Of a stretch of 64,000 nt of DNA, positions 17,820-54,557 are shown one piece after another. The notes under the pieces are model-generated. The model worked only from the letters and a program-made list of their open reading frames with translations, searched no databases and had not been told where the DNA came from. Positions within the stretch are counted from its first letter, which is position 1; each line of letters starts with the position of its first letter. This stretch comes from a virus, in IMG/VR virus record IMGVR_UViG_3300013307_000002, positions 1 through 64,000 of that record; one strand, 5' to 3'. The position numbers and the translations under genes are program-made.

Positions 17820-19331
17820 TTAATAGCTACTATTCCAACGACTAATGTTATCATTATACGCTGAAGTGTAACCGTGGTTCGCATCATTCTTAGAAACACC
17901 ACGATGTGTTACAGACATTGCTGAATATCTCATGGCATCCATAGTATCGTCGAAGGTCTTAACAACTTTGCCCTCGTTACGATGATAGCGAGCCTTCTCT
18001 TCAAAAACTCTATGACAGTGATTAAAGACTTTGAAACGACCAGTCTTCATACGTTCACGAATCTCCATGATTCCCGGCTCAACATAATTGTTCTTCTTAC
18101 CATCCATTCCAATTTTGTTATAGAAGGTTTCATGTTTCGCATTAACACCTGCATTTACATAATATTGGGCTACGGACATACCGCTTCCTCGCTCCATATT
18201 CTGTGAGTCATGCGGCAGAACAACAGGTATCCAATTACCCCTCGCGTTAATTGCATGTGCGTGTAAGGCAGGAACTCCGCCATCTGCGTGATATGCGTCA
18301 TAAATATAAATAACATCGGAATCAGGATCGTACGCTGACCAAACAACTGCTGTATCGTGAGTAATACCAATATCGACACCAGCAACACGACGCCAGTGAT
18401 CAGGGATTGGGAACGATTCACAACGAATCATTTCATCTGACACGTCATAGATTAGACCACTACCCATAACTGGTTCACCTCTTGAACGCATCTGAACTTG
18501 CCAGTCTGGAATAGCCGCTAACATATTTTTAATATCTTCCTCAGTGATATGCGGAGCATCCCACCAAGTTGCATTTTGCCAATAGAGATCCCCATCTTTG
18601 TTGACCATGAACTTATCAACTAACTCAGTACGTCCGTTCTCTGGTGTAGCTGTTAACACTACCAAGCCTCTTGTTGTCAGAGTACGTGTAACACACTGAG
18701 AAAAGATGTTCATGCTATCGTAGGGATCTTCTTCATCTAGCCAAATGAAATCTACTGTAGCACCCATGAGTGCGTGTTCACCCTGTTGGGTAGAACGGAA
18801 TTCTAATGTACTTGTTCCATCAAATTCGCCTCTCGCGTTGAAGTGTTTAACTTGTACAATTAGAATCTTGTTACCATCTTTTTCTATTGTGTCAAAGTCG
18901 ATGCAGTCACGCGGGATAGCTCCTGTACCAAGTGCTCCCAAATCTTTGGCTACCGGCGTACCGAACAATTCTTTTTGCAGAACCTTTCTTGTTGAGTCTC
19001 CAGTAATACCAACTGCCCAAGCGAGGATGGGCTTATTAAACCTATGACCAGTCCACCACGTTGGATACCTTCCGGTTAAATGACATGCCATCTCATATGC
19101 TTCACTGTAGGATTTCCCGACACGGTTAGCTGCACAGAGAAACCTAAAGCGATAGTCTTTGCTAGCACTATAGAATTGTTTTTGAAAATCGTAAGCATGG
19201 AAGTAATTCATCTTGTTATACTTCCGAAGGTTTTCCTTTTCCTGTAGCATTCGGAACAACTCAGCCTTTTGTTCTTTATTCATTGTTCTCAGTGCGATTT
19301 CAATTTCTTGTGATAAATCAATATTAGACAT
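17820..19331 (-). CDS. terL: terminase large subunit
   Basis: Walker A 'AANRVGKS', Walker B 'FIWLDEE', 'LTATP', nuclease 'GVDIG' and 'DDTMDAMRY'. Confidence 0.95.
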   Translation of the reverse strand: MSNIDLSQEIEIALRTMNKEQKAELFRMLQEKENLRKYNKMNYFHAYDFQKQFYSASKDYRFRFLCAANRVGKSYSEAYEMACHLTGRYPTWWTGHRFNKPILAWAVGITGDSTRKVLQKELFGTPVAKDLGALGTGAIPRDCIDFDTIEKDGNKILIVQVKHFNARGEFDGTSTLEFRSTQQGEHALMGATVDFIWLDEEDPYDSMNIFSQCVTRTLTTRGLVVLTATPENGRTELVDKFMVNKDGDLYWQNATWWDAPHITEEDIKNMLAAIPDWQVQMRSRGEPVMGSGLIYDVSDEMIRCESFPIPDHWRRVAGVDIGITHDTAVVWSAYDPDSDVIYIYDAYHADGGVPALHAHAINARGNWIPVVLPHDSQNMERGSGMSVAQYYVNAGVNAKHETFYNKIGMDGKKNNYVEPGIMEIRERMKTGRFKVFNHCHRVFEEKARYHRNEGKVVKTFDDTMDAMRYSAMSVTHRGVSKNDANHGYTSAYNDNISRWNSSY

Positions 19332-19347
19332 CTTTCCTCCATCCATG

Positions 19348-19382
19348 AAAAAAGGGCTAGACCCTGTATTAGAGCTAGCCCC
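19348..19382 (-). terminator. terminator-like hairpin between terS and terL
   Basis: minus strand GGGCTAG-loop-CTAGCCC followed by TTTTTT. Confidence 0.65.
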
Positions 19383-19397
19383 TTCCTATATTAACCT

Positions 19398-19814
19398 TTA
19401 GTCGTCTTCTGAATCCTCTTCTTTAGACGGAGGCAAAACATCTCCACCCAAACTCGCAGATAAGAAGTCACGGATTTTATTATCCAGTTGATCTTCAGTG
19501 AGAGCATCATGCTCGTCCATCTTAACTTCAATCGAAGCAGCTTTCGGATATACCAGATCGGCAACCTTAGCAGCAGCTTTGAATCTCAGGTCAGGTGGAA
19601 TGGTTGGATCTTGATAAATATCAATCATGACTTCATCAGGGGACAAACCAGCTTGTGCAACTCTATCTAACATAGCTTGAGTTAATTTGTTTCGTTTACC
19701 TTTAGCTCTTCCGAACTTGTTTCCTTTTTCGAACTTACCTGACTGTGGGTTCATACCTTTAACTTCATATTCATCAGTAACCCCAGCCAACCTTTTGAGT
19801 TGTTCGTTATCCAT
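19398..19814 (-). CDS. terS: terminase small subunit
   Basis: 'GKFEKGNKFGRAKGKRNKLT' motif; immediately upstream of terL. Confidence 0.75.
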   Translation of the reverse strand: MDNEQLKRLAGVTDEYEVKGMNPQSGKFEKGNKFGRAKGKRNKLTQAMLDRVAQAGLSPDEVMIDIYQDPTIPPDLRFKAAAKVADLVYPKAASIEVKMDEHDALTEDQLDNKIRDFLSASLGGDVLPPSKEEDSEDD

Positions 19815-20064
19815 TTATCAGTTCTCCTTTTCTTTCATTATAAATATTTTCGCGCCGGTTCCACCTCCGCCCCCAGCTACGCGGGGTCGTCGGCGTGTCG
19901 CTTACGCTCCTTCCTCTGAAAGAAAGAGAAGTAAGTCTATAAATGGCATGTTTGTTATGAATGGCAGGTCAGCTATGAATGCACACCCAATACCATGAAG
20001 GGCAGGTTTCTCTCTGATAGATACTCCCCACCCCTCATAGCTTACGTACTCTTTACTACTTTCA

Positions 20065-20628
20065 TTAGCTCAGTACAATCTTACCTGTCTTTAATCCTTC
20101 CATGATTTCATCGTACGCTGGATGTTCATGAACAGGGATGGTGTTGTACTCATATGAATGGAATGGTTCTAAGCAATTGAGCTTACCATCTTTATCAACT
20201 TCTACTCGACAACCATTGATGATGTTGCCTGAATGCACATCTTGTTTAGCTAGGCCATTAATGCGATGGTAGGCTTGAGGCCCATTCACCATTTCCATAA
20301 ATCTGTTAGCAGAATCTTCTACTTCTTTGTTATCAACAATATGATAGAAAGTGTTGTGAAGGGGGTTCTTACCACCAGATAAGAAATTCTCATAATCCTC
20401 TAACTTGTTTGGATTATTCACTTCTCTCTCATATTCTTCTTCCAGAGAGATTGCATGACCTGCGATGTTAAGGGCATGTTCCTTATCATAAATATCATTA
20501 ACAGCACCACCACGTAAGCTACTAACTAATTCAGTGAATTCAGTAGGAGTGATGTGACCTTCATTCAGTAGCTCATTCAGGATTGCTACTCTCTCATTAA
20601 AATTACTATTCATTAAATATGTCTCCAT
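20065..20628 (-). CDS. hypothetical protein
   Basis: 187-aa ORF in the late operon. Confidence 0.55.
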   Translation of the reverse strand: METYLMNSNFNERVAILNELLNEGHITPTEFTELVSSLRGGAVNDIYDKEHALNIAGHAISLEEEYEREVNNPNKLEDYENFLSGGKNPLHNTFYHIVDNKEVEDSANRFMEMVNGPQAYHRINGLAKQDVHSGNIINGCRVEVDKDGKLNCLEPFHSYEYNTIPVHEHPAYDEIMEGLKTGKIVLS

Positions 20629-21101
20629 GTTTTTCTGTGTACTACATTATGGATGGTAGTTCTACCAACACCATACCTAGTAGCTAAAGCCCGAACCCCG
20701 TAAGTACGAGACTCCGGTATAAACTCTTTCCGTATCTGGAGAACATCTTCTTCAGTAAGTACGTGTTTTCCGTGACGTTCAGAATATAAATTATTATTTA
20801 CTGCGTGTTCTACATTAATCTTTTGTGTACACCACTCTAGGTTGTCTATGTGGTTGTTAAGCTTATTACCATCTTTGTGATTAACAACTAAACCTTCGTA
20901 GCTTTCTTGTGGATGCCAAGTCATAGCAATCAATCTATGAATGGGGAGGTAGTGAACTTTTTTGTCAACTGTAACCTTAACTTCTAAATATCCTGCAAGA
21001 TTGATTCTGCAATATCTTTGTTTCTTATTTGTTGGTTTTCTTATTTCACCAGTCTCGTTTACCTCTAACCAAGACTCCCAACCATTTACGAGTTTGAACA
21101 T
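20613..21101 (-). CDS. HNH homing endonuclease
   Basis: 'IHRLIA...VNHKDGNKLNNHIDNLEWCT..N..HA' plus C-terminal HTH. Confidence 0.9.
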   Translation of the reverse strand: MFKLVNGWESWLEVNETGEIRKPTNKKQRYCRINLAGYLEVKVTVDKKVHYLPIHRLIAMTWHPQESYEGLVVNHKDGNKLNNHIDNLEWCTQKINVEHAVNNNLYSERHGKHVLTEEDVLQIRKEFIPESRTYGVRALATRYGVGRTTIHNVVHRKTWRHI

Positions 21102-21398
21102 AATGCCTCCAATAATATCTATACATCTTATTCATTATTGAAAGGTGGAATAGGGTTCCGTAATAGGGACACTTTTATTCTCAAAAATCCGACGAGTGGG
21201 GTATAGAGCTTTTGGCGAAAAGGCAGAAAGGGGAGTCCTCATTTGGTTTTTCCTAAACAGAACTATCCTTGTTTGTCAATCGGAACTATCCTAAATCGCT
21301 AGCCATTCACCGCTATGCATACCTATGCACTACCTACCCCTACCCATTAATAACAGGGGGTTTTATTCAGAGGATAAACTATTCAGTGTTATATCTTA

Positions 21399-22219
21399 TA
21401 AACTATTGATTCATATAATATAAAAAATGTAGGAAATAACCCGTATTTATGTTGACAACGTGATGCCGATATGATAGGCCCGACTATAGAACTAAGCATA
21501 GACTATACTCTGAGTAACTAAGCATTCATTGCTATTGCATAACCATTCATTATCCGCTGAGAAAGATAAAGTCTAAAGCATTAATAGCTAAAGAATGATT
21601 ACATTTCCCAGGGTTAATAAACGTAGATTATTCAGTAGGTTAGTTGTAGTAGAGTTAGTAAGTTGTTGATTCTTCTCTCTTTTCTTCAGAGTGTGTTTGA
21701 GTGTAACGAAAACGTTAAAGATGTTAGTAGAGAGTTATATGCCTGTTAAGTAATTGTAATTAGATTGTTAATAGGATGTTATTCATACTTAGAATAAATA
21801 TAGTAACTTAATGAAATAATTCTTGACATTTACTATTAAATATGTTATAATATACTATTAGAATGATAGTAATAAGTTATAATGTTTTATAGAATTATTA
21901 TTAATTGAAATATTATTATTAGAAATTATAACTCTTAGAATTATTAACAAGGTTAACTCTATTACATTCAGATCCGTAGTCTATAAGTACCAGATTATAG
22001 AGTGATTATTGAGCAGTTAGATTAAGTGGTTGATTTATAAGAAGTTTTATTTGTTGATTGTTGGAACTGTACAAGATACGCATGTACGCGTTCTATCTAC
22101 TGAGCGATGATTGATTGGTACTAGATAGATAAACTGTTTATAAATCAGTAACTTAGATGTTTAGTGCGATGGGATGATAAGAATTTAGAGATTATTTTCT
22201 CTTTAGAATCAATAACTTA
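21399..22219. promoter_or_regulatory. cluster of IHF-binding consensus sites
   Basis: exact WATCAANNNNTTR at 21399-21411(-), 21659-21671(-), 22023-22035(-), 22207-22219(+); one-mismatch copy at 22143-22155(+). Confidence 0.6.
21823..21851 (+). promoter_or_regulatory. consensus sigma70 early promoter
   Basis: TTGACA-17 bp-TATAAT with extended -10 TG and AT-rich upstream sequence. Confidence 0.85.
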
Positions 22220-22251
22220 GAAGAAAGATTGAAAATAGTTAGACAAAATGG

Positions 22252-22341
22252 TTGCAGTGAAGGGCGATTCTGATATTATGTATCTCAAGCCAGCAGCAAC
22301 GGCTCAGACAACTAGAAGTTTGGTTGTCGTGCTCTTTAACA
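22252..22341 (+). promoter_or_regulatory. rrn-like promoter 1 plus boxA
   Basis: TTGCAG-16-TATTAT; hairpins; TGCTCTTTAACA at 22330-22341. Confidence 0.75.
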
Positions 22342-22467
22342 ATCAGACTGTTATGTTATCCCTTTAGTAACGATGTTACAAGCTAACGAGAATTAACTAG
22401 ATTGCCGTTGAGGTTGTTACTGGAAACAGTGACTTAGCAAAAAGGTTAATTGAGAGTGAAAAAGAGA

Positions 22468-22579
22468 TTGACAGATTAAAACAGTCTGATAGAATGGGCA
22501 CCAAGTTGAACGGAAAGCCGCGCTGAATAAGTTTAGTAAGCCCCGCAAGATGTTTAGCTAGTAGTACCGCTCTTTAAAA
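22468..22579 (+). promoter_or_regulatory. rrn-like promoter 2 plus boxA
   Basis: TTGACA-16-TAGAAT; CGCTCTTTAAAA at 22568-22579. Confidence 0.75.
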
Positions 22580-22633
22580 ATTTAACTTCAGTCTGGTCTG
22601 ATAAACTATCTACTTAGCAGGGGAAGGTTTATC

Positions 22634-22822
22634 ATGGCAAGAAATACTCTTAAACGTGTGATGTTAGGTTATATCCTAATTGATAACGAAACGGGCGCTG
22701 TATTCGACAGAGGCCCACACGACAGAGAGTGGTCACTAGTGATTAATAAGTCACTGGCAGATACTCTCAGAGATTGGGGCGGCAAGGCTGCCATAGTCGG
22801 GCAAAACGTTGTGTTTAAGTGA
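22634..22822 (+). CDS. first early protein (62 aa), hypothetical
   Basis: purine-rich RBS (GGGGAAGG); gene enclosed by a 28-bp RNA stem. Confidence 0.65.
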   Translation: MARNTLKRVMLGYILIDNETGAVFDRGPHDREWSLVINKSLADTLRDWGGKAAIVGQNVVFK

Positions 22823-22879
22823 TGATAGACTGGCGCTCAGGCGCTGGTTTATCAGACTAGATTGAAGTTGAAAAAATTG

Positions 22880-22977
22880 TTGACCTGACCGGCGATTGCT
22901 GTATAATGGTTAACAAGTTGAGGCGATAAGCCTTAACAGATAACGGTGTAACAGCTTGTTGTCGACGCTCTTTAACA
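22880..22977 (+). promoter_or_regulatory. rrn-like promoter 3 plus boxA
   Basis: TTGACC-16-TATAAT; hairpin GTTGAGGC-GATAA-GCCTTAAC; CGCTCTTTAACA at 22966-22977. Confidence 0.8.
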
Positions 22978-22981
22978 AACA

Positions 22982-23269
22982 GGATGATTACTTAACTAGC
23001 GAAAGCAATCGCTTAGAATGACGCTCAGGCGCTTCTATGATGGTTGTTAGTAGGTTGGTTGTGTGTAGCGGGTAAATAAGCACAATCGACAAGGTTAGTA
23101 GCGAAACAGAAAGCTGATTATCATATCGGGCTTTTGTAGCAGTCTGCCTATCCGGTGAGACTAAGCGCAATAGCTGTAAACGGTAGATGAAAGGTTAATA
23201 AGAAGTGCGAACGCCCACTAAGTTAAGATGACAATACAGAATGTAACAATTCGCTTTTGTCTATCATCC
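22982..23269 (+). ncRNA. candidate structured ncRNA A
   Basis: closing stems GGATGAT/ATCATCC and CTTAACT/AGTTAAG; possible internal pseudoknot; no plus-strand ORF of 60 codons or more. Confidence 0.45.
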
Positions 23270-23287
23270 GAGCGGCTAACGCCGCGC

Positions 23288-23542
23288 CCCGTTTAACAAT
23301 ATGGTTTTGATTCTATCCAAGTATGAGACTAGCGAGATAGTTTAGTGTTGAGGATTGAAAGCAGATAACTCCCTGTTGTAGTTTGATATAGTGATTCTGT
23401 GAGTAGTGGCTTAACGATAATCGCTGATAGTAAAAGTAGGGCATGAGTACGTGATAGGCCGGAAAGTGTGCGAACTGAAAACGGTGATTAGTGCGGCGTT
23501 AGAGATTATTTGGATTAAATAGAATCGCCTTTGTTAAACGGG
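23288..23542 (+). ncRNA. candidate structured ncRNA B
   Basis: perfect 12-bp closing stem CCCGTTTAACAA/TTGTTAAACGGG extended by GATTCTA/TAGAATC and TCCAA/TTGGA. Confidence 0.5.
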
Positions 23543-23725
23543 AGGATAAAATGTAAAGCGTAAAGGTTTACAACCTAAATTAATGTGAGGTGGCTTGGTG
23601 CCTTAATCTGAAAAAGATTATGTGAGCATGAGCCTCTTTACCTGTTGTCAGTGCGGTTACTACTGTGACGGCGCTGATAATGGTAAACAGGTTTTTAAAC
23701 AACACCTTAGCAGGGAGTGAAGTAA

Positions 23726-24022
23726 ATGGAAAAAATAACACTGGTTAGAATGTTTAGACAATTACTTGTTAGTTCAATCGACAAGTTAGGCGCAGGCGGT
23801 ATGAAACCGGAGGCTGTTTATCGGGAGTTTATCGCTCGCAAGGCTAACATCCTCGAAAATGTACACTCTACCACTAACCGCAAAGAGCATTTAGCGTTAA
23901 TGCTTATTGCAAACAAAGTTTATGTGAACCCCACTAAAAAGGGCAGTAGCGAACTGTTAAAGAAAGAGTTTGAAACGTGTTTAAACAAACTCCCTTCAGC
24001 AGTTAACGGTTTTAAAAAGTAG
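23726..24022 (+). CDS. hypothetical early protein
   Basis: 98-aa ORF with GGGAG RBS. Confidence 0.6.
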   Translation: MEKITLVRMFRQLLVSSIDKLGAGGMKPEAVYREFIARKANILENVHSTTNRKEHLALMLIANKVYVNPTKKGSSELLKKEFETCLNKLPSAVNGFKK

Positions 24023-24089
24023 TAAACTGTAGTACAATCCGAGTGTAATAACTCAATCTCATAAATAAATACTTTGAAAGGTAAATAAA

Positions 24090-24971
24090 ATGTCTAAAGT
24101 TGAAATCGTAAAAGGTCAAGATAACATCCGTAGCGTAATTGGCGCAATCGCTGGTAAAGCTAAAGCGTACAAAACCGTTATTTCTAGCGCAATCCTCTCT
24201 GCTTATCAGCACTACCGTTTACACGGTGATTACACCCTGCTGCAAGAAGCGTTAGACACTGTTTTCTCTATCAATTACCGTGATTACTCCGCCGTTGCTG
24301 ATTTTGTTCGCTCTTACACTGAGCTGGAATGTGTTACTCTTAATCAGGGCCGCCGTCAGCGTGTTGAGATCGCTGGAACAATTGAATCTCAGATGGAACG
24401 CCCGGAAAATATGTCCATGAAAGATTGGAACGCTAAGCTGGAGTCTAAGCGTAGTGAAATGATCATCCGTAATGGTCGCTTTGACGATTTTGCTACCGGC
24501 AAGCCGATCCCAATGAAGAATCCTAATTGGGTACAGGGTATGCCTAAAGATGAAAAGCAGGAAGGCGTAGTTTACGACGGCGACATCTTTGCATGGCATG
24601 ATGATGTTAAATGGCTGCGCACTGCTGCCCCTACTGTTGGCGGTGAAAGCACTGAAAACCTGCGAGAGCTGCCGGTAGAGCAAGCGGTAAACGTCGCTGT
24701 TAAACTGGAAGATCGTGTCCTGAAATCCAGCAACAAGCCAGTGTTTGCTGTCCTGATTCATATGATGGAACGTTTTGAAGCTGAAACCGGCGTGTATGCT
24801 ACTGATGAAGAGATTGAAACTTTCCAGCGCCGTGTAAATGCACTGCTGGAGCGCACCAAAGCGCGGTCAGAAAGCAAAGCAGAACGTGAAGCTGCTGAAA
24901 AGCAGGCTGCTGAAGAAAACAGCGGTGAGCAGGTAGTAACAACAGAGCAGGGCGAACCACTGCCTTACTAA
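24090..24971 (+). CDS. hypothetical early protein
   Basis: 293-aa ORF with RBS and high-expression-type codon usage. Confidence 0.75.
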   Translation: MSKVEIVKGQDNIRSVIGAIAGKAKAYKTVISSAILSAYQHYRLHGDYTLLQEALDTVFSINYRDYSAVADFVRSYTELECVTLNQGRRQRVEIAGTIESQMERPENMSMKDWNAKLESKRSEMIIRNGRFDDFATGKPIPMKNPNWVQGMPKDEKQEGVVYDGDIFAWHDDVKWLRTAAPTVGGESTENLRELPVEQAVNVAVKLEDRVLKSSNKPVFAVLIHMMERFEAETGVYATDEEIETFQRRVNALLERTKARSESKAEREAAEKQAAEENSGEQVVTTEQGEPLPY

Positions 24972-25125
24972 TACCTGATTGTATAAAAGTCAAAGGGCAT
25001 AATCTAACAGGTTGTGCCCTTTATTGTATGCAATTATAAGATTTATGTTTACCCCGTCTTAAATGTAACCCTGCTAAGTTATTAGGCGGGGTAGACATAC
25101 CCATTATTACTAGGAAAAATTATCA

Positions 25126-25524
25126 ATGTCTGAATTTGTACAGATGAAAGATGCTCAAACCGCTGAAGAGAAAGCAGCATCTATCGCAGCTATTGCAGCC
25201 CGTAGTAAAACACGCCACCTAACTAACTTTGGTTTAAGCCGTGGTGCTCTGCGAGTGTCTAAGCAGTCTGAAAATAGTGATGTCCGTAGCAGCGTAACAT
25301 CTCGCTTTCGTAAACCTGCGGAACGTGGTACGTTAGAACATCGTGAGACGCGCAAAGTAACTAAAGGCCGTCAGAAAGTTAAAGGTAAAACTATTGAGCC
25401 TGACGGCTGGTATACTCTTTCTCAGGGCGCTGATTGTGTGATGGGGCGTGATGAAAACAAACGCACCAAAGCTACCACGTCACAAGGCGTTTTTGTGAAC
25501 GGAAAGAATAAAGGGTTTAAATGA
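25126..25524 (+). CDS. basic hypothetical early protein
   Basis: 132 aa, Lys/Arg-rich; followed by a terminator. Confidence 0.7.
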   Translation: MSEFVQMKDAQTAEEKAASIAAIAARSKTRHLTNFGLSRGALRVSKQSENSDVRSSVTSRFRKPAERGTLEHRETRKVTKGRQKVKGKTIEPDGWYTLSQGADCVMGRDENKRTKATTSQGVFVNGKNKGFK

Positions 25525-25554
25525 TCAACTGCTGTTTATAAGGTAACTTTACCT

Positions 25555-25583
25555 AGCCACTCCTCCGGGGGTGGCTTTTTTTT
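25555..25583 (+). terminator. rho-independent terminator
   Basis: AGCCACTCC-TCC-GGGGGTGGC followed by a T run. Confidence 0.8.
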
Positions 25584-25625
25584 GCTTAAAGAAAAGTGTA
25601 ACCTTTTGTATAGGAATGTCTAACA

Positions 25626-25982
25626 ATGAAACAGCAAACAATATCTAAAGAGCGTCGCAATGCGATGCATCGTAATTACAAGGCATACATAGGCAGGCTG
25701 ATTGCCTTGTTCCCTGAAGTGTTTGACCGTGAAAACCCTAAGCCGCTGGCTATCGGTACTGCTGAAATGCTTCTCAGTCTGCCAGCGTTAAAGATGGATG
25801 ATGATCTAGTGTCTGACGTGCTGGCTTGTTGGTGTAGCCGCCGGGAGTATATCCGTGCTGCTTATCAACTGCGGGAACGTTGGAACGTGGTCGGTGTGCC
25901 TGTTGGCCCTATCATTGATTGGCAACAGAAACGTTTTGACACTCTTTATCACAAGATGGTCAAGCGTGGTTTGTATAACTAA
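25626..25982 (+). CDS. proQ: ProQ/FinO-domain RNA chaperone
   Basis: 'LFPEVFDRENPKPLAIG...LACWCSRREY...RWNVVGVPVG' follows the FinO pattern P-x-F...PLKIGI...Y...R-x-DLDG. Confidence 0.75.
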   Translation: MKQQTISKERRNAMHRNYKAYIGRLIALFPEVFDRENPKPLAIGTAEMLLSLPALKMDDDLVSDVLACWCSRREYIRAAYQLRERWNVVGVPVGPIIDWQQKRFDTLYHKMVKRGLYN

Positions 25983-26042
25983 GCTATACGGGGCAGGTTT
26001 TACTACTGTGACGCCGCGCCCCCTCAGTAAAAGGAATTACTA

Positions 26043-26441
26043 TTGATCTCTACGGCTATATTATATGTCGCTCTCACTACTTACCATGAGGCAAGAGGTG
26101 AGCCAAAATTGTGTCAGTTATTAGTGGCTGAGACAGTGAGCAACCGTATGAAAAGCCGTGATTTAACAGCTAAGCAGGTTGTAAGACAAAAGAATCAATT
26201 CTCATGGGTATCTGTCTTAAAGGGCAGAAGTGTTAGACAGGAATATAAAAGAATACAAAGGACAGCAGAACCTGCTGATAGGAAAGCACTAGATGATTCA
26301 ATCAATCTGGCTAATTGGGTTCTCTCTCCTTTGTATGTTTCAGTGAGTGATGCTGAATATTTCCACGATACTAGCATACGTACCCCTAAACACTTTAAAC
26401 ATAGGATAACGTGTGGAGGTAAGCTAGTTTTTTCTAGGTAA
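26043..26441 (+). CDS. cell wall hydrolase (Hydrolase_2/SleB-like)
   Basis: 'YHEARGEP...VAETVSNR...VVRQKNQFSW...AEYFH' motifs. Confidence 0.85.
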   Translation: MISTAILYVALTTYHEARGEPKLCQLLVAETVSNRMKSRDLTAKQVVRQKNQFSWVSVLKGRSVRQEYKRIQRTAEPADRKALDDSINLANWVLSPLYVSVSDAEYFHDTSIRTPKHFKHRITCGGKLVFSR

Positions 26442-26654
26442 ATCAATATGGATAAATGCGTATTCTGTAAGCAGCCGATTGGTTTGCTACAAGAAATAAT
26501 CTTAATCAATTGGCGTAAGCGTAAAGGTGAGCGCCGTATTGTTATTGCTTATAGCTGCACTGGTTGTGGTGAAGATCGTATAACTGACTTCTGCCAGCCT
26601 GAAAGGCCAGTGTTCAAATAAACAACTACTGTGACGTTTTTGTGAGGAATTGCC

Positions 26655-27125
26655 ATGCGTAAATTATTGTTGTTGGCTGTGTCAGTCTCGTTAGTTTTCA
26701 CCGCCCCGGCAATGGCTCGTGGCAATTACAATTCATCCTCTGAAAATTACCAGAAATATCAGCAGGATACTCGTACCCCTGAAGAGATTGAAGAGGACGA
26801 GGATTATGAAGATGGTGTTACAGATTGGGAAGATCACACTGTACCATCTCCTCAGCATGACTCTCAGAACGCCTCTTTAGCTATGTGCGGTAAACACACT
26901 GTCTTTATAAATCAAGATGATAATGTGCTTACAGTGGATGGTTTAAGCTATCAGTTGCTGGGTTTTGATTATAAGGTAGTTAACTCAGAACCTGTTCTAA
27001 TTGATCACTATGCTCTTGGCAATAAGATTGCTAACTTAGCAGTATTTCAAAACTCTAAGAAAATGATCTTCTTTCTTCAGGGTGAAAAACACTCTGTTGA
27101 ATGTGTTCCATATCAGTGGAACTAA
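26655..27125 (+). CDS. exported hypothetical protein
   Basis: classical signal peptide ending 'APAMA'. Confidence 0.6.
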   Translation: MRKLLLLAVSVSLVFTAPAMARGNYNSSSENYQKYQQDTRTPEEIEEDEDYEDGVTDWEDHTVPSPQHDSQNASLAMCGKHTVFINQDDNVLTVDGLSYQLLGFDYKVVNSEPVLIDHYALGNKIANLAVFQNSKKMIFFLQGEKHSVECVPYQWN

Positions 27126-27445
27126 GAGTATATTTCTCATAATGGACTCAAAGCATGAGCTTAACGCTAGCGTTGGATCGCTTGCTTCTGCACATGCTTA
27201 GTATTCTTTTGTATAGGAGTTCATTATGGCTAAGATTAACGTTAAAACAGCCAAAAAACCTCTTAATAATAAAGAGGATAAGGCAAAAGATCCAGATGTG
27301 AATGATGTTAAACGTAAGTTAGCAGCACTACTTCTGTTTCAACAACTCCACAAAGAGAAGCCCAAGAAAGGTAGCCTATCTAAAGTGGATTCAAACGACA
27401 AACCCTCTGAGTAATCAGGGGGTTTTCTTTTATCAGGGTTAATAT

Positions 27446-28012: not shown

Positions 28013-28088
28013 GATTCTGTAGTTCAGTTGGTAGAACGGTGGACTGTTAATCCATATGTCGCAGGTTCAAATCCTGCCAGAATCGCCA
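28013..28088 (+). tRNA. tRNA-Asn(GTT)
   Basis: cloverleaf GATTCTG/CAGAATC, loop CT-GTT-AA, TTCAAAT T-loop, encoded CCA. Confidence 0.95.
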
Positions 28089-28094
28089 AACAAT

Positions 28095-28163
28095 GGGAAC
28101 CTGAGCACTCTAGGGGACTAGAATATGAGCAATGGTTAATGACACTCGTGATGGTTCCCACCA
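28095..28163 (+). ncRNA. non-canonical tRNA-like RNA
   Basis: 7-bp acceptor GGGAACC/GGTTCCC plus A-CCA, but only two internal hairpins and no T-loop. Confidence 0.55.
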
Positions 28164-28169
28164 TTCAAT

Positions 28170-28256
28170 GTTGGATTACTCAAGCGGCAACGAGAGCAGA
28201 CTGTAAATCTGTGGCCCATATGGGCTTCGAAGGTTCGAGTCCTTCATCCAACACCA
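28170..28256 (+). tRNA. tRNA-Tyr(GTA)
   Basis: GTTGGAT/ATCCAAC, loop CT-GTA-AA, long variable arm, CCA. Confidence 0.95.
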
Positions 28257-28291
28257 AACAATGCACCTATAGTTAATTTTTGAGGTTTACT

Positions 28292-28501
28292 ATGGCAGAC
28301 TGTAATCGTTGTGGGGATTCTGGGGGAAAGTACTCCCCAAATGAAAACTCTAATAATGGGGTTTTCTGTTACAACTGTATTGATATTGTGTTAGCTGGGG
28401 GCGGAGGAGGTGACTGTAACCCTCGTTACTCTGATAACCCCGGCACAAGGGAAGCTTATAGAAGACTTATGAGCGCCCCAAACTCAGAGTACAAGTATTA
28501 A
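28292..28501 (+). CDS. small CxxC/CxxC zinc-binding protein inserted in the tRNA array
   Basis: GAGG RBS; 'CNRC' and 'CYNC'. Confidence 0.55.
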   Translation: MADCNRCGDSGGKYSPNENSNNGVFCYNCIDIVLAGGGGGDCNPRYSDNPGTREAYRRLMSAPNSEYKY

Positions 28502-28514
28502 TCAAATATATAAT

Positions 28515-28589
28515 GCACCTATAGTTAAATGGATATAACAGGAGCCTTCTAAGCTCTAGTTCTAGGTTCGATTCCTAGTGGGTGTGCCA
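28515..28589 (+). tRNA. tRNA-Arg(TCT)
   Basis: GCACCTA/TGGGTGT, loop CT-TCT-AA, CCA. Confidence 0.93.
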
Positions 28590-28595
28590 TATTTA

Positions 28596-28684
28596 GCCCG
28601 GATGATGAAACTGGTAAACATAGGAGACTTAAAATTTCCCGTCTCGTAAGAGGCTTGCGGGTTCGACCCCCGCTCCGGGCACCA
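28596..28684 (+). tRNA. tRNA-Leu(TAA)
   Basis: GCCCGGA/TCCGGGC, loop CT-TAA-AA, long variable arm, CCA. Confidence 0.93.
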
Positions 28685-28717
28685 AACAAAGTAACTTTCA
28701 GTTCAGTGAGATAAAGT

Positions 28718-28915
28718 ATGAACAGAGAGCAGTCCTTGCACTGGAGGGGTTGGTTAGAAAAACAGCCCATGTTTAATGCGAGAGTTTACTGTGTTAGATG
28801 TATGGCACCTTATAAAATAGGTGAATGTCAAGAGACACTAGATTCTCCGGGTTGCTATTGGAAGGAGAGTAAATGCCCTTCATGTGGGTGTAAACTTTAT
28901 TACAGCCATCTATAG
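28718..28915 (+). CDS. small zinc-finger protein
   Basis: 'CVRC' and 'CPSC' motifs. Confidence 0.5.
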   Translation: MNREQSLHWRGWLEKQPMFNARVYCVRCMAPYKIGECQETLDSPGCYWKESKCPSCGCKLYYSHL

Positions 28916-28945
28916 TAATACATCTAGCAAGAATAACCAAACAAT

Positions 28946-29020
28946 AGGGCTATCGTATAATGGTTATTACATCGGCCTTTGACTCCGATAATCCACGTTC
29001 GATTCGTGGTAGCTCTGCCA
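28946..29020 (+). tRNA. tRNA-Gln(TTG)
   Basis: AGGGCTA/TAGCTCT, loop CT-TTG-AC, CCA. Confidence 0.9.
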
Positions 29021-29916: not shown

Positions 29917-30007
29917 GTTACAGGTCGTCTAGTGGACTAGGACAACAGCCAAGTAATTCTTAGGAATGAAACGCGGGAAACGTAGGTTCAAATCCTGCTC
30001 TGTAACA
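29917..30007 (+). pseudogene. pseudo-tRNA / tRNA-like RNA with replaced anticodon arm
   Basis: intact acceptor, D-arm (GTCTAGTGGACTAGGAC) and T-arm (GTAGGTTCAAATCCTGC); anticodon region expanded; no CCA. Confidence 0.6.
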
Positions 30008-52760: not shown

Positions 52761-54557
52761 GTGAAAACAGATAAAGTAATCGTAGGTGATACAGCTTGTC
52801 CAGAATGTCGCTCTCATGGACGTGACAAGTCAGGCAATCACCTAATCCTTTTTCACAACACTCAGACAGATGAGCGGTGGGGCAAATGTGGTCGTTGTGG
52901 TCACTATGAGGTATTTGATAAGGGTAATATGCCTGAAGTCAAAGAGAAGAAGGAGCTAACTCCAGAAGAGCTTAAAGAGCTTTTGGATGAAGTTCTGGAA
53001 CTTCCTCAGAAAGACCTCACTGACAGATTGATTCCTAAATCTGTTGCTGAACGCTTCGGTGTTCGTATTGGTCTTAGTTGTGAAGATGGTCAGACCCCTG
53101 TAAGTTATTTCTTTCCTCGTGAGAAGGAAGGGGATATTCAGGGGTATGAAGTTAAAGGTATTGAACGTAAATATTTTTACTTCGTAGGTAATGTCAAAGA
53201 GTCTGATTTCTTTGGACTCTCTCAAGCACAGCGTGGCGATGTTTATAACAAGAAGCTTTTCATCTTTGAGGATGCTTTGAGTTGTATGTCTGGTTTCCAT
53301 GTCCTGACTCAGTTCACGACAGCCACTAACATCAAACCAGCTTGTGTTGCACTTCCAAACGGTGCAGGAAGCATCTCTTCAGTCATGTCTCGCAATCGTG
53401 AGTTTCTTAACGGCTTTGATGAAATTGTTATCTGTATGGATAATGATTCTGCTGGAGAGGAAGCTCTGATTAAAGGTCGTGCTCTTTATCCGAATGCCAA
53501 GTTTGCAAGGATTCCGAAAGGTATCTTTACTTACAAAGGTAATGAGAAAGAGATGAAGGATGCCAATGATATGCTTCTGGCAGGTCGTGGTCAGGAACTC
53601 TTTAACATTCTCAAGTATTCAGCGAAACGTGAATCTCCAGCAGGTTCTGTTACGGTGTTTGATTGCTTAGAGGATGCTCTAAAGAAACCTGAGTGGGGTA
53701 TTCCATATCCGTGGGAGACTCTGAACAACATGACCTTTGGTATTCGTTGGGGTGAGATGGTCGCTATTGGTGGCGGTGTAGGGTCTGGTAAGACTCTGAT
53801 TGCTCATGAACTAGTAGCGTGGCTTTGCCTCAAGCACGGATTTAATGGCGGTGGATTCTTCTTAGAAGAAAAAGTCGGCATGTCCGTTAAGAATATCGCT
53901 GGTAAAGCAGCAAGTATTCCATTCCATCGTCCAGATATCGAGTATGACCAAGATGTTCTGTACAACGAAGCTTTGAAGTTCGCTGATAAGTTCTTCCTGT
54001 ACGACAACTTTGGTCAGAATGACTGGAGTGATATTAAGCAGTGTATTCGTTTTTGGGTTGTTGAGAATGATTGTAAGTTTATTATTCTTGATAACATCAC
54101 AGCCCTTGTCTCACATCTTACTCCTTCAGAGATCAATACTGAGATTAGTAAGATTGCATCTGAGCTTGCTGGTATGTGTCAGGAACTGAACTTCACTGCT
54201 TTTGTTCTGTCTCACTTGAACTCACCAACATCAGGCAATCCTCATGAAGAGGGCGGTCAGGTTAAAGAGGTGCAGTTCACTGGTTCTCGTTCACTTATGC
54301 GTTGGTGCCAGTGCATCATCGGCTTTGAGCGTAACAAACAGGCAGATGGTAATGGAAAGAACTTGTCCTTGATTCGACTTCTCAAGGAACGTAACTATGG
54401 TCAGACAGGTATCTGTTATACCAAGTACGAACCAGCCACAGGGCGTCTCTTAGAGCGTACTGAGGAAGAAGTGGATGAAGGTAATCCTTTTGCTTGCATG
54501 GAAGATGTAATCGCAATGGAAGAAGGTGCGAAAGAGAATGACAAGTCTCCGTGGTAA
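52761..54557 (+). CDS. primase/helicase (T7 gp4-like)
   Basis: Zn-binding 'CPEC...CGRC', TOPRIM 'MDNDSAG', 'GGVGSGKT', 'IILDNI', 'VLSHL'. Confidence 0.93.

Follow-up and report, generated by a model that had tools for sequence, protein, structure and literature searches.

The virus record IMGVR_UViG_3300013307_000002 of the IMG/VR collection is an 82,361-bp sequence with direct terminal repeats, obtained from a rhizosphere metagenome, whose large terminase (TerL) is 67–68% identical to that of Kuravirus-type coliphages of the phiEco32 group. In the first 64 kb of this record, which is the stretch analysed here and is referred to as the window, the structural genes, directed leftward, end at 21101 and the early genes, directed rightward, begin at 23726, and the 2.6 kb between them hold a single open reading frame (ORF), which encodes 62 amino acids. 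It is in this spacer that the original prediction had seen three tandem imitations of a ribosomal RNA (rrn) operon leader, i.e. a promoter, hairpins and a boxA, the RNA element on which host Nus factors assemble, and had proposed that the phage recruits the host's antitermination machinery in order to transcribe RNA at which the factor Rho would otherwise terminate. Our data partly support this interpretation overall and confirm the observation underlying it: the three GYUCUUUAA elements are real, non-random and conserved, and they are probably rrn-type boxAs.

On the + strand, boxA1 (TGCTCTTTAACA, 22330–22341), boxA2 (CGCTCTTTAAAA, 22568–22579) and boxA3 (CGCTCTTTAACA, 22966–22977) occupy the positions originally given, and all three match the gamma-proteobacterial boxA consensus GYTCTTTAANA as published by Baniulyte et al. 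(2017). A chance origin of this cluster can be rejected. The string GCTCTTTAA occurs four times in the window, where 0.83 copies are expected and none of 100 shuffles reaches four, and three of these four copies lie within 650 nt (22331–22975) on the + strand. The full consensus is matched four times in the whole genome, three of these matches being the elements described here, as compared with 0.76 on average and never more than 4 in 300 first-order Markov resamples. Two near-matches elsewhere, GCTCTGTAACA at 29997 and ACTCTTTAACA at 53597, were discarded on account of imperfect core positions.

The same region is found in two metagenomic relatives, L002 and L003, whose TerL is 95% and 93% identical and whose early region aligns with that of the window at about 70% identity; two DNA patterns and a metagenome scan with the 98-amino-acid protein encoded from 23726 onwards, used in search of further members of this clade, returned the same two contigs only. 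Across the three sequences, a perfect consensus boxA is retained in all nine homologous units, set in flanks that are about 70% identical. The homologues of boxA1 are TGTTCTTTAAAA in L002 and TGCTCTTTAATA in L003, those of boxA2 are CGTTCTTTAAAA and TGCTCTTTAACA, and those of boxA3 are CGTTCTTTAACA and TGTTCTTTAACA, respectively. What changes within the clade is confined to the degenerate positions of the consensus, namely position 2 (C or U) and position 10 (N), with L002 carrying GTTCTTTAA in all three units and L003 having two C forms and one U form. The contigs of four related sequencing runs are 90–99% alike, and among the differences listed for them the sole changes in the 12-mers are 22330 (T>C) and 22340 (C>A), neither of which falls within the nine-base boxA cores. 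Among the sequencing runs listed as containing this DNA, none is an RNA run. In the contig of run X6, positions 22546–22898, which comprise boxA2, the small gene and the helix that encloses it, are swapped for 362 unrelated letters, and because of this replacement the module appears to be exchangeable.

Each boxA lies shortly downstream of a predicted σ70 promoter, in what would be the untranslated leader of the respective transcript. These promoters, all on the + strand and all with a 16-bp spacer, are P1 (TTGCAG-16-TATTAT; −35 at 22252–22257, −10 at 22274–22279), P2 (TTGACA-16-TAGAAT; −35 at 22468–22473, −10 at 22490–22495) and P3 (TTGACC-16-TATAAT; −35 at 22880–22885, −10 at 22902–22907). 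All of them were correctly placed in the original prediction, as was the sequence G-N5-CAAG that follows the −10 hexamer in all three, and the distance from −10 to boxA, put at 50–72 nt, measures 50, 72 and 58 nt. P2 and P3, both with an upstream A-tract and P2 also with a TG before its −10, match the consensus at 11 of 12 positions each. P1 has a TG-extended −10 and a weak −35, matches at eight of 12 positions and is absent from the list of a promoter scanner; homologous −35/−10 pairs stand at the conserved position in L002 and L003, and across the four related sequencing runs its −10 reads TA(T/A/G)TAT. Three promoters, however, turned out to be an undercount. A fourth, P0 (TTGACA-17-TATAAT with a TG before −10; 21823–21851, + strand), lies upstream of the three units, is a 12/12 consensus match and is conserved in L002 and L003; there is no boxA between P0 and P1. 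Matches of at least 11 of 12 occur in the whole 82-kb genome only at 21823, 22468 and 22880, i.e. exclusively on the early strand and in this region. As judged by eye, a CA located 6–7 nt past −10 is kept in all nine units of the three sequences and CAAG in six of the nine, which fits transcription starts at about 22287, 22503 and 22915; the P1 transcript probably starts at the CA at 22286/22287. The approximately 400 nt from P0 to P1 (21858–22250) are gene-free and AT-rich and contain blocks that are invariant in all three relatives, e.g. at ~21940–21965 and 22010–22040; these could be RNA, or DNA signals near the genome end.

The RNA that would be made from these promoters is, as originally claimed, largely untranslated over some 1.4 kb: 1.44 kb separate the putative P1 start from the 98-amino-acid gene at 23726 (22287–23725), and the only ORF in this stretch is the 62-amino-acid gene (22634–22822, + strand). 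The latter is conserved, with proteins 61–66% identical to the first aligned sequence; its product matches no family in PHROGs or Pfam and has no assigned function. In L002 (3270–3345, − strand) and L003 (6650–6715, − strand), about 70 extra bases follow this gene and, as judged by eye, contain a small hydrophobic ORF; the window is without them. Downstream of boxA3, a structured and gene-free leader RNA extends from 22978 to 23725 (+ strand).

The short hairpins ascribed to each unit do appear in minimum-energy folds, which leave boxA single-stranded in all three units, as is also the case in rrnB, but only unit 3 folds better than shuffled sequences (z = −1.0, −0.1 and −2.9 for units 1, 2 and 3, respectively). 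In unit 3, two hairpins fill the space between the putative P3 start and boxA3 (22917–22963, + strand; −19.3 kcal/mol, z = −2.9, none of 200 shuffles as stable). In unit 1, a hairpin in the boxB position (22307–22328, + strand) ends 1 nt before boxA1, and at this place L002 has a hairpin of different sequence, as judged by eye. A scanner had flagged this hairpin and the U-rich boxA1 as terminator-like; we read them instead as a hairpin/boxA pair, because rrnB shows the same design.

Past each boxA, i.e. 0, 1 and 4 nt downstream of boxA1, boxA2 and boxA3, respectively, begins the 5′ arm of a predicted long-range helix. Helix 1 (5′ arm 22342–22363, 3′ arm 22464–22490, + strand), which RNAalifold produced de novo, has 90.9% of cells paired versus 27–45% when slid, and contains no compensatory pair. 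Helix 2 (5′ arm 22581–22607, 3′ arm 22846–22872, + strand) is a leader–trailer helix of 27 bp, which encloses the 62-amino-acid gene and whose 3′ arm ends just upstream of the A-tract of P3; it is 97.5% paired versus 27–51% when slid and shows four compensatory pairs, with 17 of 500 shuffles scoring as high. Helix 3 consists of 7 bp (GGATGAT at 22982–22988 with ATCATCC at 23263–23269, + strand), includes one compensatory pair (alignment columns 138–145 with 426–433) and closes a domain of about 288 nt. A boxA ahead of the 5′ strand of a long leader–trailer helix is thus found with covariation at helices 2 and 3, and helix 1 is compatible with the same arrangement. Over 22860–23760, RNAalifold applied to the alignment of the three sequences (A2) predicts 178 pairs, 53 of them compensatory. 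A search of 19000–27000 against Rfam returned no family at E ≤ 1 except one chance match to a miRNA elsewhere in the stretch. Two smaller features of this RNA may be added. RNAalifold also pairs the P3 transcript start (22914–22923) with 23701–23712, which overlap the ribosome-binding site of the 98-amino-acid gene (columns 67–76 and 996–1005 of A2), and this modelled pairing would close the whole leader and might mask that site. A conserved GC hairpin (GGCGCT...GGCGCT) is located at 22830–22847, just inside the 3′ arm of helix 2, with a similar GCGCTCAGGCGCT at 23021–23034.

We compared 13 loci, i.e. this phage, its two close relatives and 10 Kuravirus-type coliphages (phiEco32, SU10, L005, L009, NC-B, PAS59, TH42, Bas93, Bas88 and KBNP1711). 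Consensus boxAs are present in all 13, with three to five per locus, and of these 52 lie on the early strand and none on the opposite strand; when whole records are scanned, three to five of the four to eight matches per record fall into the cluster. The gap that separates genes 124 and 125 of phiEco32 is unannotated and holds four, all of them preceded by a TTGACA promoter, and some coliphage copies are identical to the rrnB leader of Escherichia coli (E. coli) over up to 19 contiguous nt. The last boxA of the 10 Kuraviruses is a constant 836–845 nt upstream of the first long ORF, a covarying helix arm begins 1 nt past it, and the stretch that follows has 239 predicted pairs, 64 of them compensatory. 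Profiles compared by nhmmer show no significant likeness between the leaders of the two clades (E > 0.5), with only boxA and a TTTAACAATA motif aligning weakly, and homology of the folded RNAs of the two clades is therefore not claimed. Nor was any similarity found between the DNA of 21700–24100 and a phage collection, or between 22280–22400 and E. coli genomes even at E ≤ 10. The tail fibre of this phage is nearest to those of Pantoea and Erwinia phages, at 45–46% only, a weak pointer to the host of this clade, which is probably a bacterium other than E. coli.

Among the relatives that had originally been named for a conservation scan, phiEco32 has its four boxAs, GAP52 has one and 7-11 has none on the early strand: its record as a whole contains just one match, and this is wrongly oriented for the leftward early transcription described for this phage. 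The GAP52 boxA is situated near the left end of the record (L030, 1–480, − strand), and a promoter near it, other than the one upstream of this boxA, is nearly identical in design to P2 (TTGACA-16-TAGAAT-G-N5-CAAG); because transcription would run off the end of the record, the early leader of GAP52 seems to be divided between the two ends of the sequence as deposited. In phiEco32 (L016), the last boxA (1113–1121) is predicted to pair with a 9-nt complement at ~320–330, some 35 nt ahead of the position where gene 124 starts to be translated; the two arms hardly vary among the 10 Kuravirus sequences and therefore show no covariation, and this pairing may be a matter of chance. Among the texts searched, none mentions boxA for phiEco32 or the Kuraviruses, and the SU10 paper contains neither boxA nor 'antitermin'; the element may nonetheless already have been described for this group.

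The arrangement has much in common with the rrn operons of E. coli. These have tandem strong σ70 promoters with 16-bp spacers (the two rrnB promoters do read so, as the original prediction had stated for rrn P1 promoters), a hairpin and then boxA soon after the start, a boxA that occurs more than once in a transcript and each time precedes a domain enclosed by a stem, and a mostly untranslated, folded product, and the same features are predicted for the phage. The rrn complex (rrnTAC), which is composed of NusA, NusB, NusE, NusG, SuhB and S4, requires no phage or N protein, and the phage units probably need none either. According to Warner et al. (2023), the set of boxB, boxA and boxC occurs twice in rrn operons, immediately downstream of P2 and a second time ahead of the 23S rRNA gene, and boxA is necessary and sufficient for the recruitment of NusB/E and for the antitermination complex. 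The same authors describe one model in which boxA keeps the 5′ strand of the leader–trailer helix anchored at the RNA exit channel while the trailer has yet to emerge; they give the boxC consensus as UCUGUGUGGG, 18–19 nt past boxA, with helix structure outweighing boxC sequence (Warner et al. 2023). Here the phage departs from rrn, since UCUGUGUGGG is absent from 21262–27346 at up to two mismatches, including the site 18–19 nt past boxA, and the helix arm begins already 0–4 nt past boxA. Moreover, each of the three downstream promoters of the phage has its own boxA, one of the enclosed domains is a protein-coding gene, and the RNA is not rRNA and belongs to no Rfam family.

With T7, this phage shares the lifestyle of a virulent podovirus, a leading end at which three strong host promoters stand in tandem, a boxA and the apparent lack of an N protein. 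The boxA of T7 stands behind promoters A0–A3, and its mutations are reported to make Gp2 dispensable (Savalia et al. 2010, cited in Shadrin et al., PMC3709561). Direct comparison with T7 498–823 reveals the same order of tandem host promoters and boxA at the start of the early region; T7 812–823, 62 nt past the A3 start, even reads CGCTCTTTAACA, i.e. is identical to boxA3. In T7, however, a single boxA serves all promoters and translated genes follow about 100 nt later, whereas this phage has three boxAs (the family three to five), one per promoter, which feed 0.75–1.4 kb of structured untranslated RNA. For SU10, three σ70 promoters have been described in the spacer between genes 120 and 121, 'like phage phiEco32', in the SU10 paper. 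Family membership, the position ahead of the main early genes and boxAs in the spacer, four in each of phiEco32 and SU10, link these two phages with the present one, but the TerL proteins are no more than 67–68% identical, the leaders are not detectably homologous, and the phiEco32 cluster has four genes and a terminator ahead of it.

The nut sites of lambda would be comparable in that a boxA recruits NusB/NusE to early phage transcripts, as predicted here. The lambda order of boxA followed by an N-bound boxB hairpin is not found, however: in this phage the hairpin lies upstream of boxA, as in rrn, and its sequence varies between relatives. Lambda boxA is a shorter form, whereas that of the phage has the full rrn consensus. 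In line with the original prediction, no N-like protein is evident among the first 10 early ORFs searched in PHROGs or among 10 partly different ORFs searched in Pfam, a missing match being weak evidence. Finally, boxA supports long non-coding transcripts, namely rRNA and CRISPR arrays (Stringer et al. 2020, cited in Ellis et al. 2021, PMC7862264). The boxAs of CRISPR arrays and suhB have the same consensus and operate outside rRNA, carrying polymerase through long untranslated RNA in the case of the arrays, and the U variant of L002, GTTCTTTAAAA, is identical to the reported boxA of the Legionella Lens array. They differ in being cellular loci with a single boxA, which in suhB results in repression. 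Elements of this kind have thus been described before, in rrn operons, T7 and CRISPR arrays; what is new here is its presence in a divergent clade, the C/U variation within the consensus, the provision of a separate boxA for each promoter and the close association of boxA with long-range helices.

From the identity of the motif, its restriction to one strand and its conservation, together with the quality of the promoters and the covariation of the helices, we infer, with a probability of about 0.7, that the boxAs are N-independent loading sites for host Nus factors on each early transcript, which would allow processive synthesis of the leader and probably also the closure of its helices. Host σ70 polymerase would start at the four tandem early promoters, and once the three downstream transcripts had each grown to a few tens of nucleotides, a boxA in single-stranded form would emerge behind a hairpin. 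Host NusB–NusE (S10) would bind to it and nucleate a NusA/NusG/SuhB-type complex on the polymerase, and the polymerase thus modified would finish the ~1.44 kb of nearly untranslated RNA (22287–23725), which ribosomes could not shield, and then enter the early genes. With the 3′ arm of a helix emerging 150–290 nt after the 5′ arm, a tethered boxA would probably retain the 5′ arm at the RNA exit channel and thereby let the helices close, as has also been proposed for boxA and boxC in 16S rRNA.

Several observations weigh against this proposal or shift its emphasis. Rho might, as originally supposed, otherwise terminate transcription of the leader, but the 1.44-kb transcript is C-poor (16–17% C versus 23–26% G), and C exceeds G in only 9.4% of its 78-nt windows as opposed to 22–26% in coding DNA. 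Because this RNA is C-poor and also heavily structured, it looks like a poor substrate for Rho, and the need for an anti-Rho device is not evident. The position of boxA directly before long-range helices indicates a folding or tethering role at least as much as anti-Rho action. There is no boxC, P1 with its eight of 12 positions is a poor promoter match, and shuffled sequences fold as stably as the hairpins of units 1 and 2. As to helix 1, its 3′ arm overlaps the −35 hexamer and spacer of P2 and it has no compensatory change, so its conservation could stem from that of the promoter. The related phage 7-11 manages without an early-strand boxA, and the clade itself consists of only three diverged sequences. 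The tail fibre being a weak pointer to the host, the host's own boxA may differ from the consensus applied here.

Three other explanations together account for about a quarter of the probability. It is unlikely that the motif is not a Nus site at all, i.e. that it acts at the DNA level as the target of a phage or host protein, or is a mere passenger of promoter-unit duplication. The phiEco32 units do resemble paralogous repeats with similar promoters, and helix 1 is without covariation, as might be expected on such grounds. Against this stand the absolute strand bias (52 versus 0), the invariable location downstream of a promoter, the retention of the motif in two clades despite leaders that show no other detectable likeness (nhmmer E > 0.5), variation that stays within the degenerate positions of the RNA consensus, and the long matches of some coliphage copies to the E. 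coli rrnB leader (up to 19 nt).

Nus-factor binding could also serve other ends. Abundant boxA RNA might titrate NusB/NusE off the rrn operons of the host and so aid a shutdown of ribosome synthesis, with read-through being incidental. The presence of several copies (three to five per genome) behind the strongest promoters of the genome and a base composition that seems to call for little anti-Rho protection are in keeping with such a decoy, and over-expressed boxA RNA reportedly competes for a host factor. We nevertheless consider it quite improbable, as the scanner detects no terminator past any boxA that would release short RNAs, the placement of boxA exactly at the 5′ arms of long-range helices argues for a role in cis, and the T7 element, too, is described as acting in cis on anti-terminated transcription. 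Alternatively, Nus factors at boxA2 might, as at suhB, loop the RNA, block access of ribosomes to the 62-amino-acid gene and promote Rho-dependent termination, which would make early expression sensitive to the levels of free Nus factors. With its location 54 nt upstream of the ATG at 22634, boxA2 would be close enough for such control, since the suhB boxA represses translation even with up to 100 nt inserted before the Shine–Dalgarno sequence (Baniulyte et al. 2017), and the C>G windows of the transcript are found around boxA1 and just upstream of boxA2, reminiscent of the overlapping rut site reported for suhB. However, only one of the three boxAs precedes an ORF, the last boxA of the Kuraviruses is 836–845 nt away from the next long ORF, and repression would oppose the strong early promoters, all of which makes this possibility very unlikely.

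Loading of host Nus factors onto each early transcript, the explanation we favour, suggests a way in which phiEco32-like phages, from which no antiterminator is known, could move host polymerase through long, folded and untranslated early RNA. The boxA device is conserved in both clades of the family examined, including a lineage that probably does not infect E. coli and whose boxAs have drifted only within the functional consensus. It is open to experiment in phiEco32, which grows on E. coli K-12-type hosts for which nus, suhB, rho and rnc mutants exist, and the close pairing of boxA with long-range helices could help, in a natural setting, to tell the anti-Rho role of the Nus complex apart from its role in RNA folding.

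More speculatively, the phage may have copied the chaperone logic of rrn operons in addition to their antitermination signal, with boxA-bound Nus complexes holding the 5′ arms of the helices until the 3′ arms have been made and thereby folding the stem-enclosed modules, an idea that we regard as rather doubtful. The caged small gene and the large non-coding domains would then act early in infection as functional RNAs or RNA–protein particles, perhaps together with a ProQ/FinO-type protein, which is a similarly tentative thought. If true, this would make it convenient to test whether the Nus complex has the folding role that is under dispute, since the cell does not depend on the system.

Two features among the early genes may be mentioned in this context. 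The gene at 25626–25982 (+ strand) encodes a ProQ/FinO-family RNA-binding protein (Pfam PF04352, E = 3.6e-12), which is a candidate partner of the structured early RNA. About 5 kb downstream and on the same strand, five tRNA genes (Asn, Tyr, Arg, Leu and Gln) are clustered at 28013–29020 (+ strand), and these would constitute a further stretch of untranslated RNA for a boxA-modified polymerase to cross.

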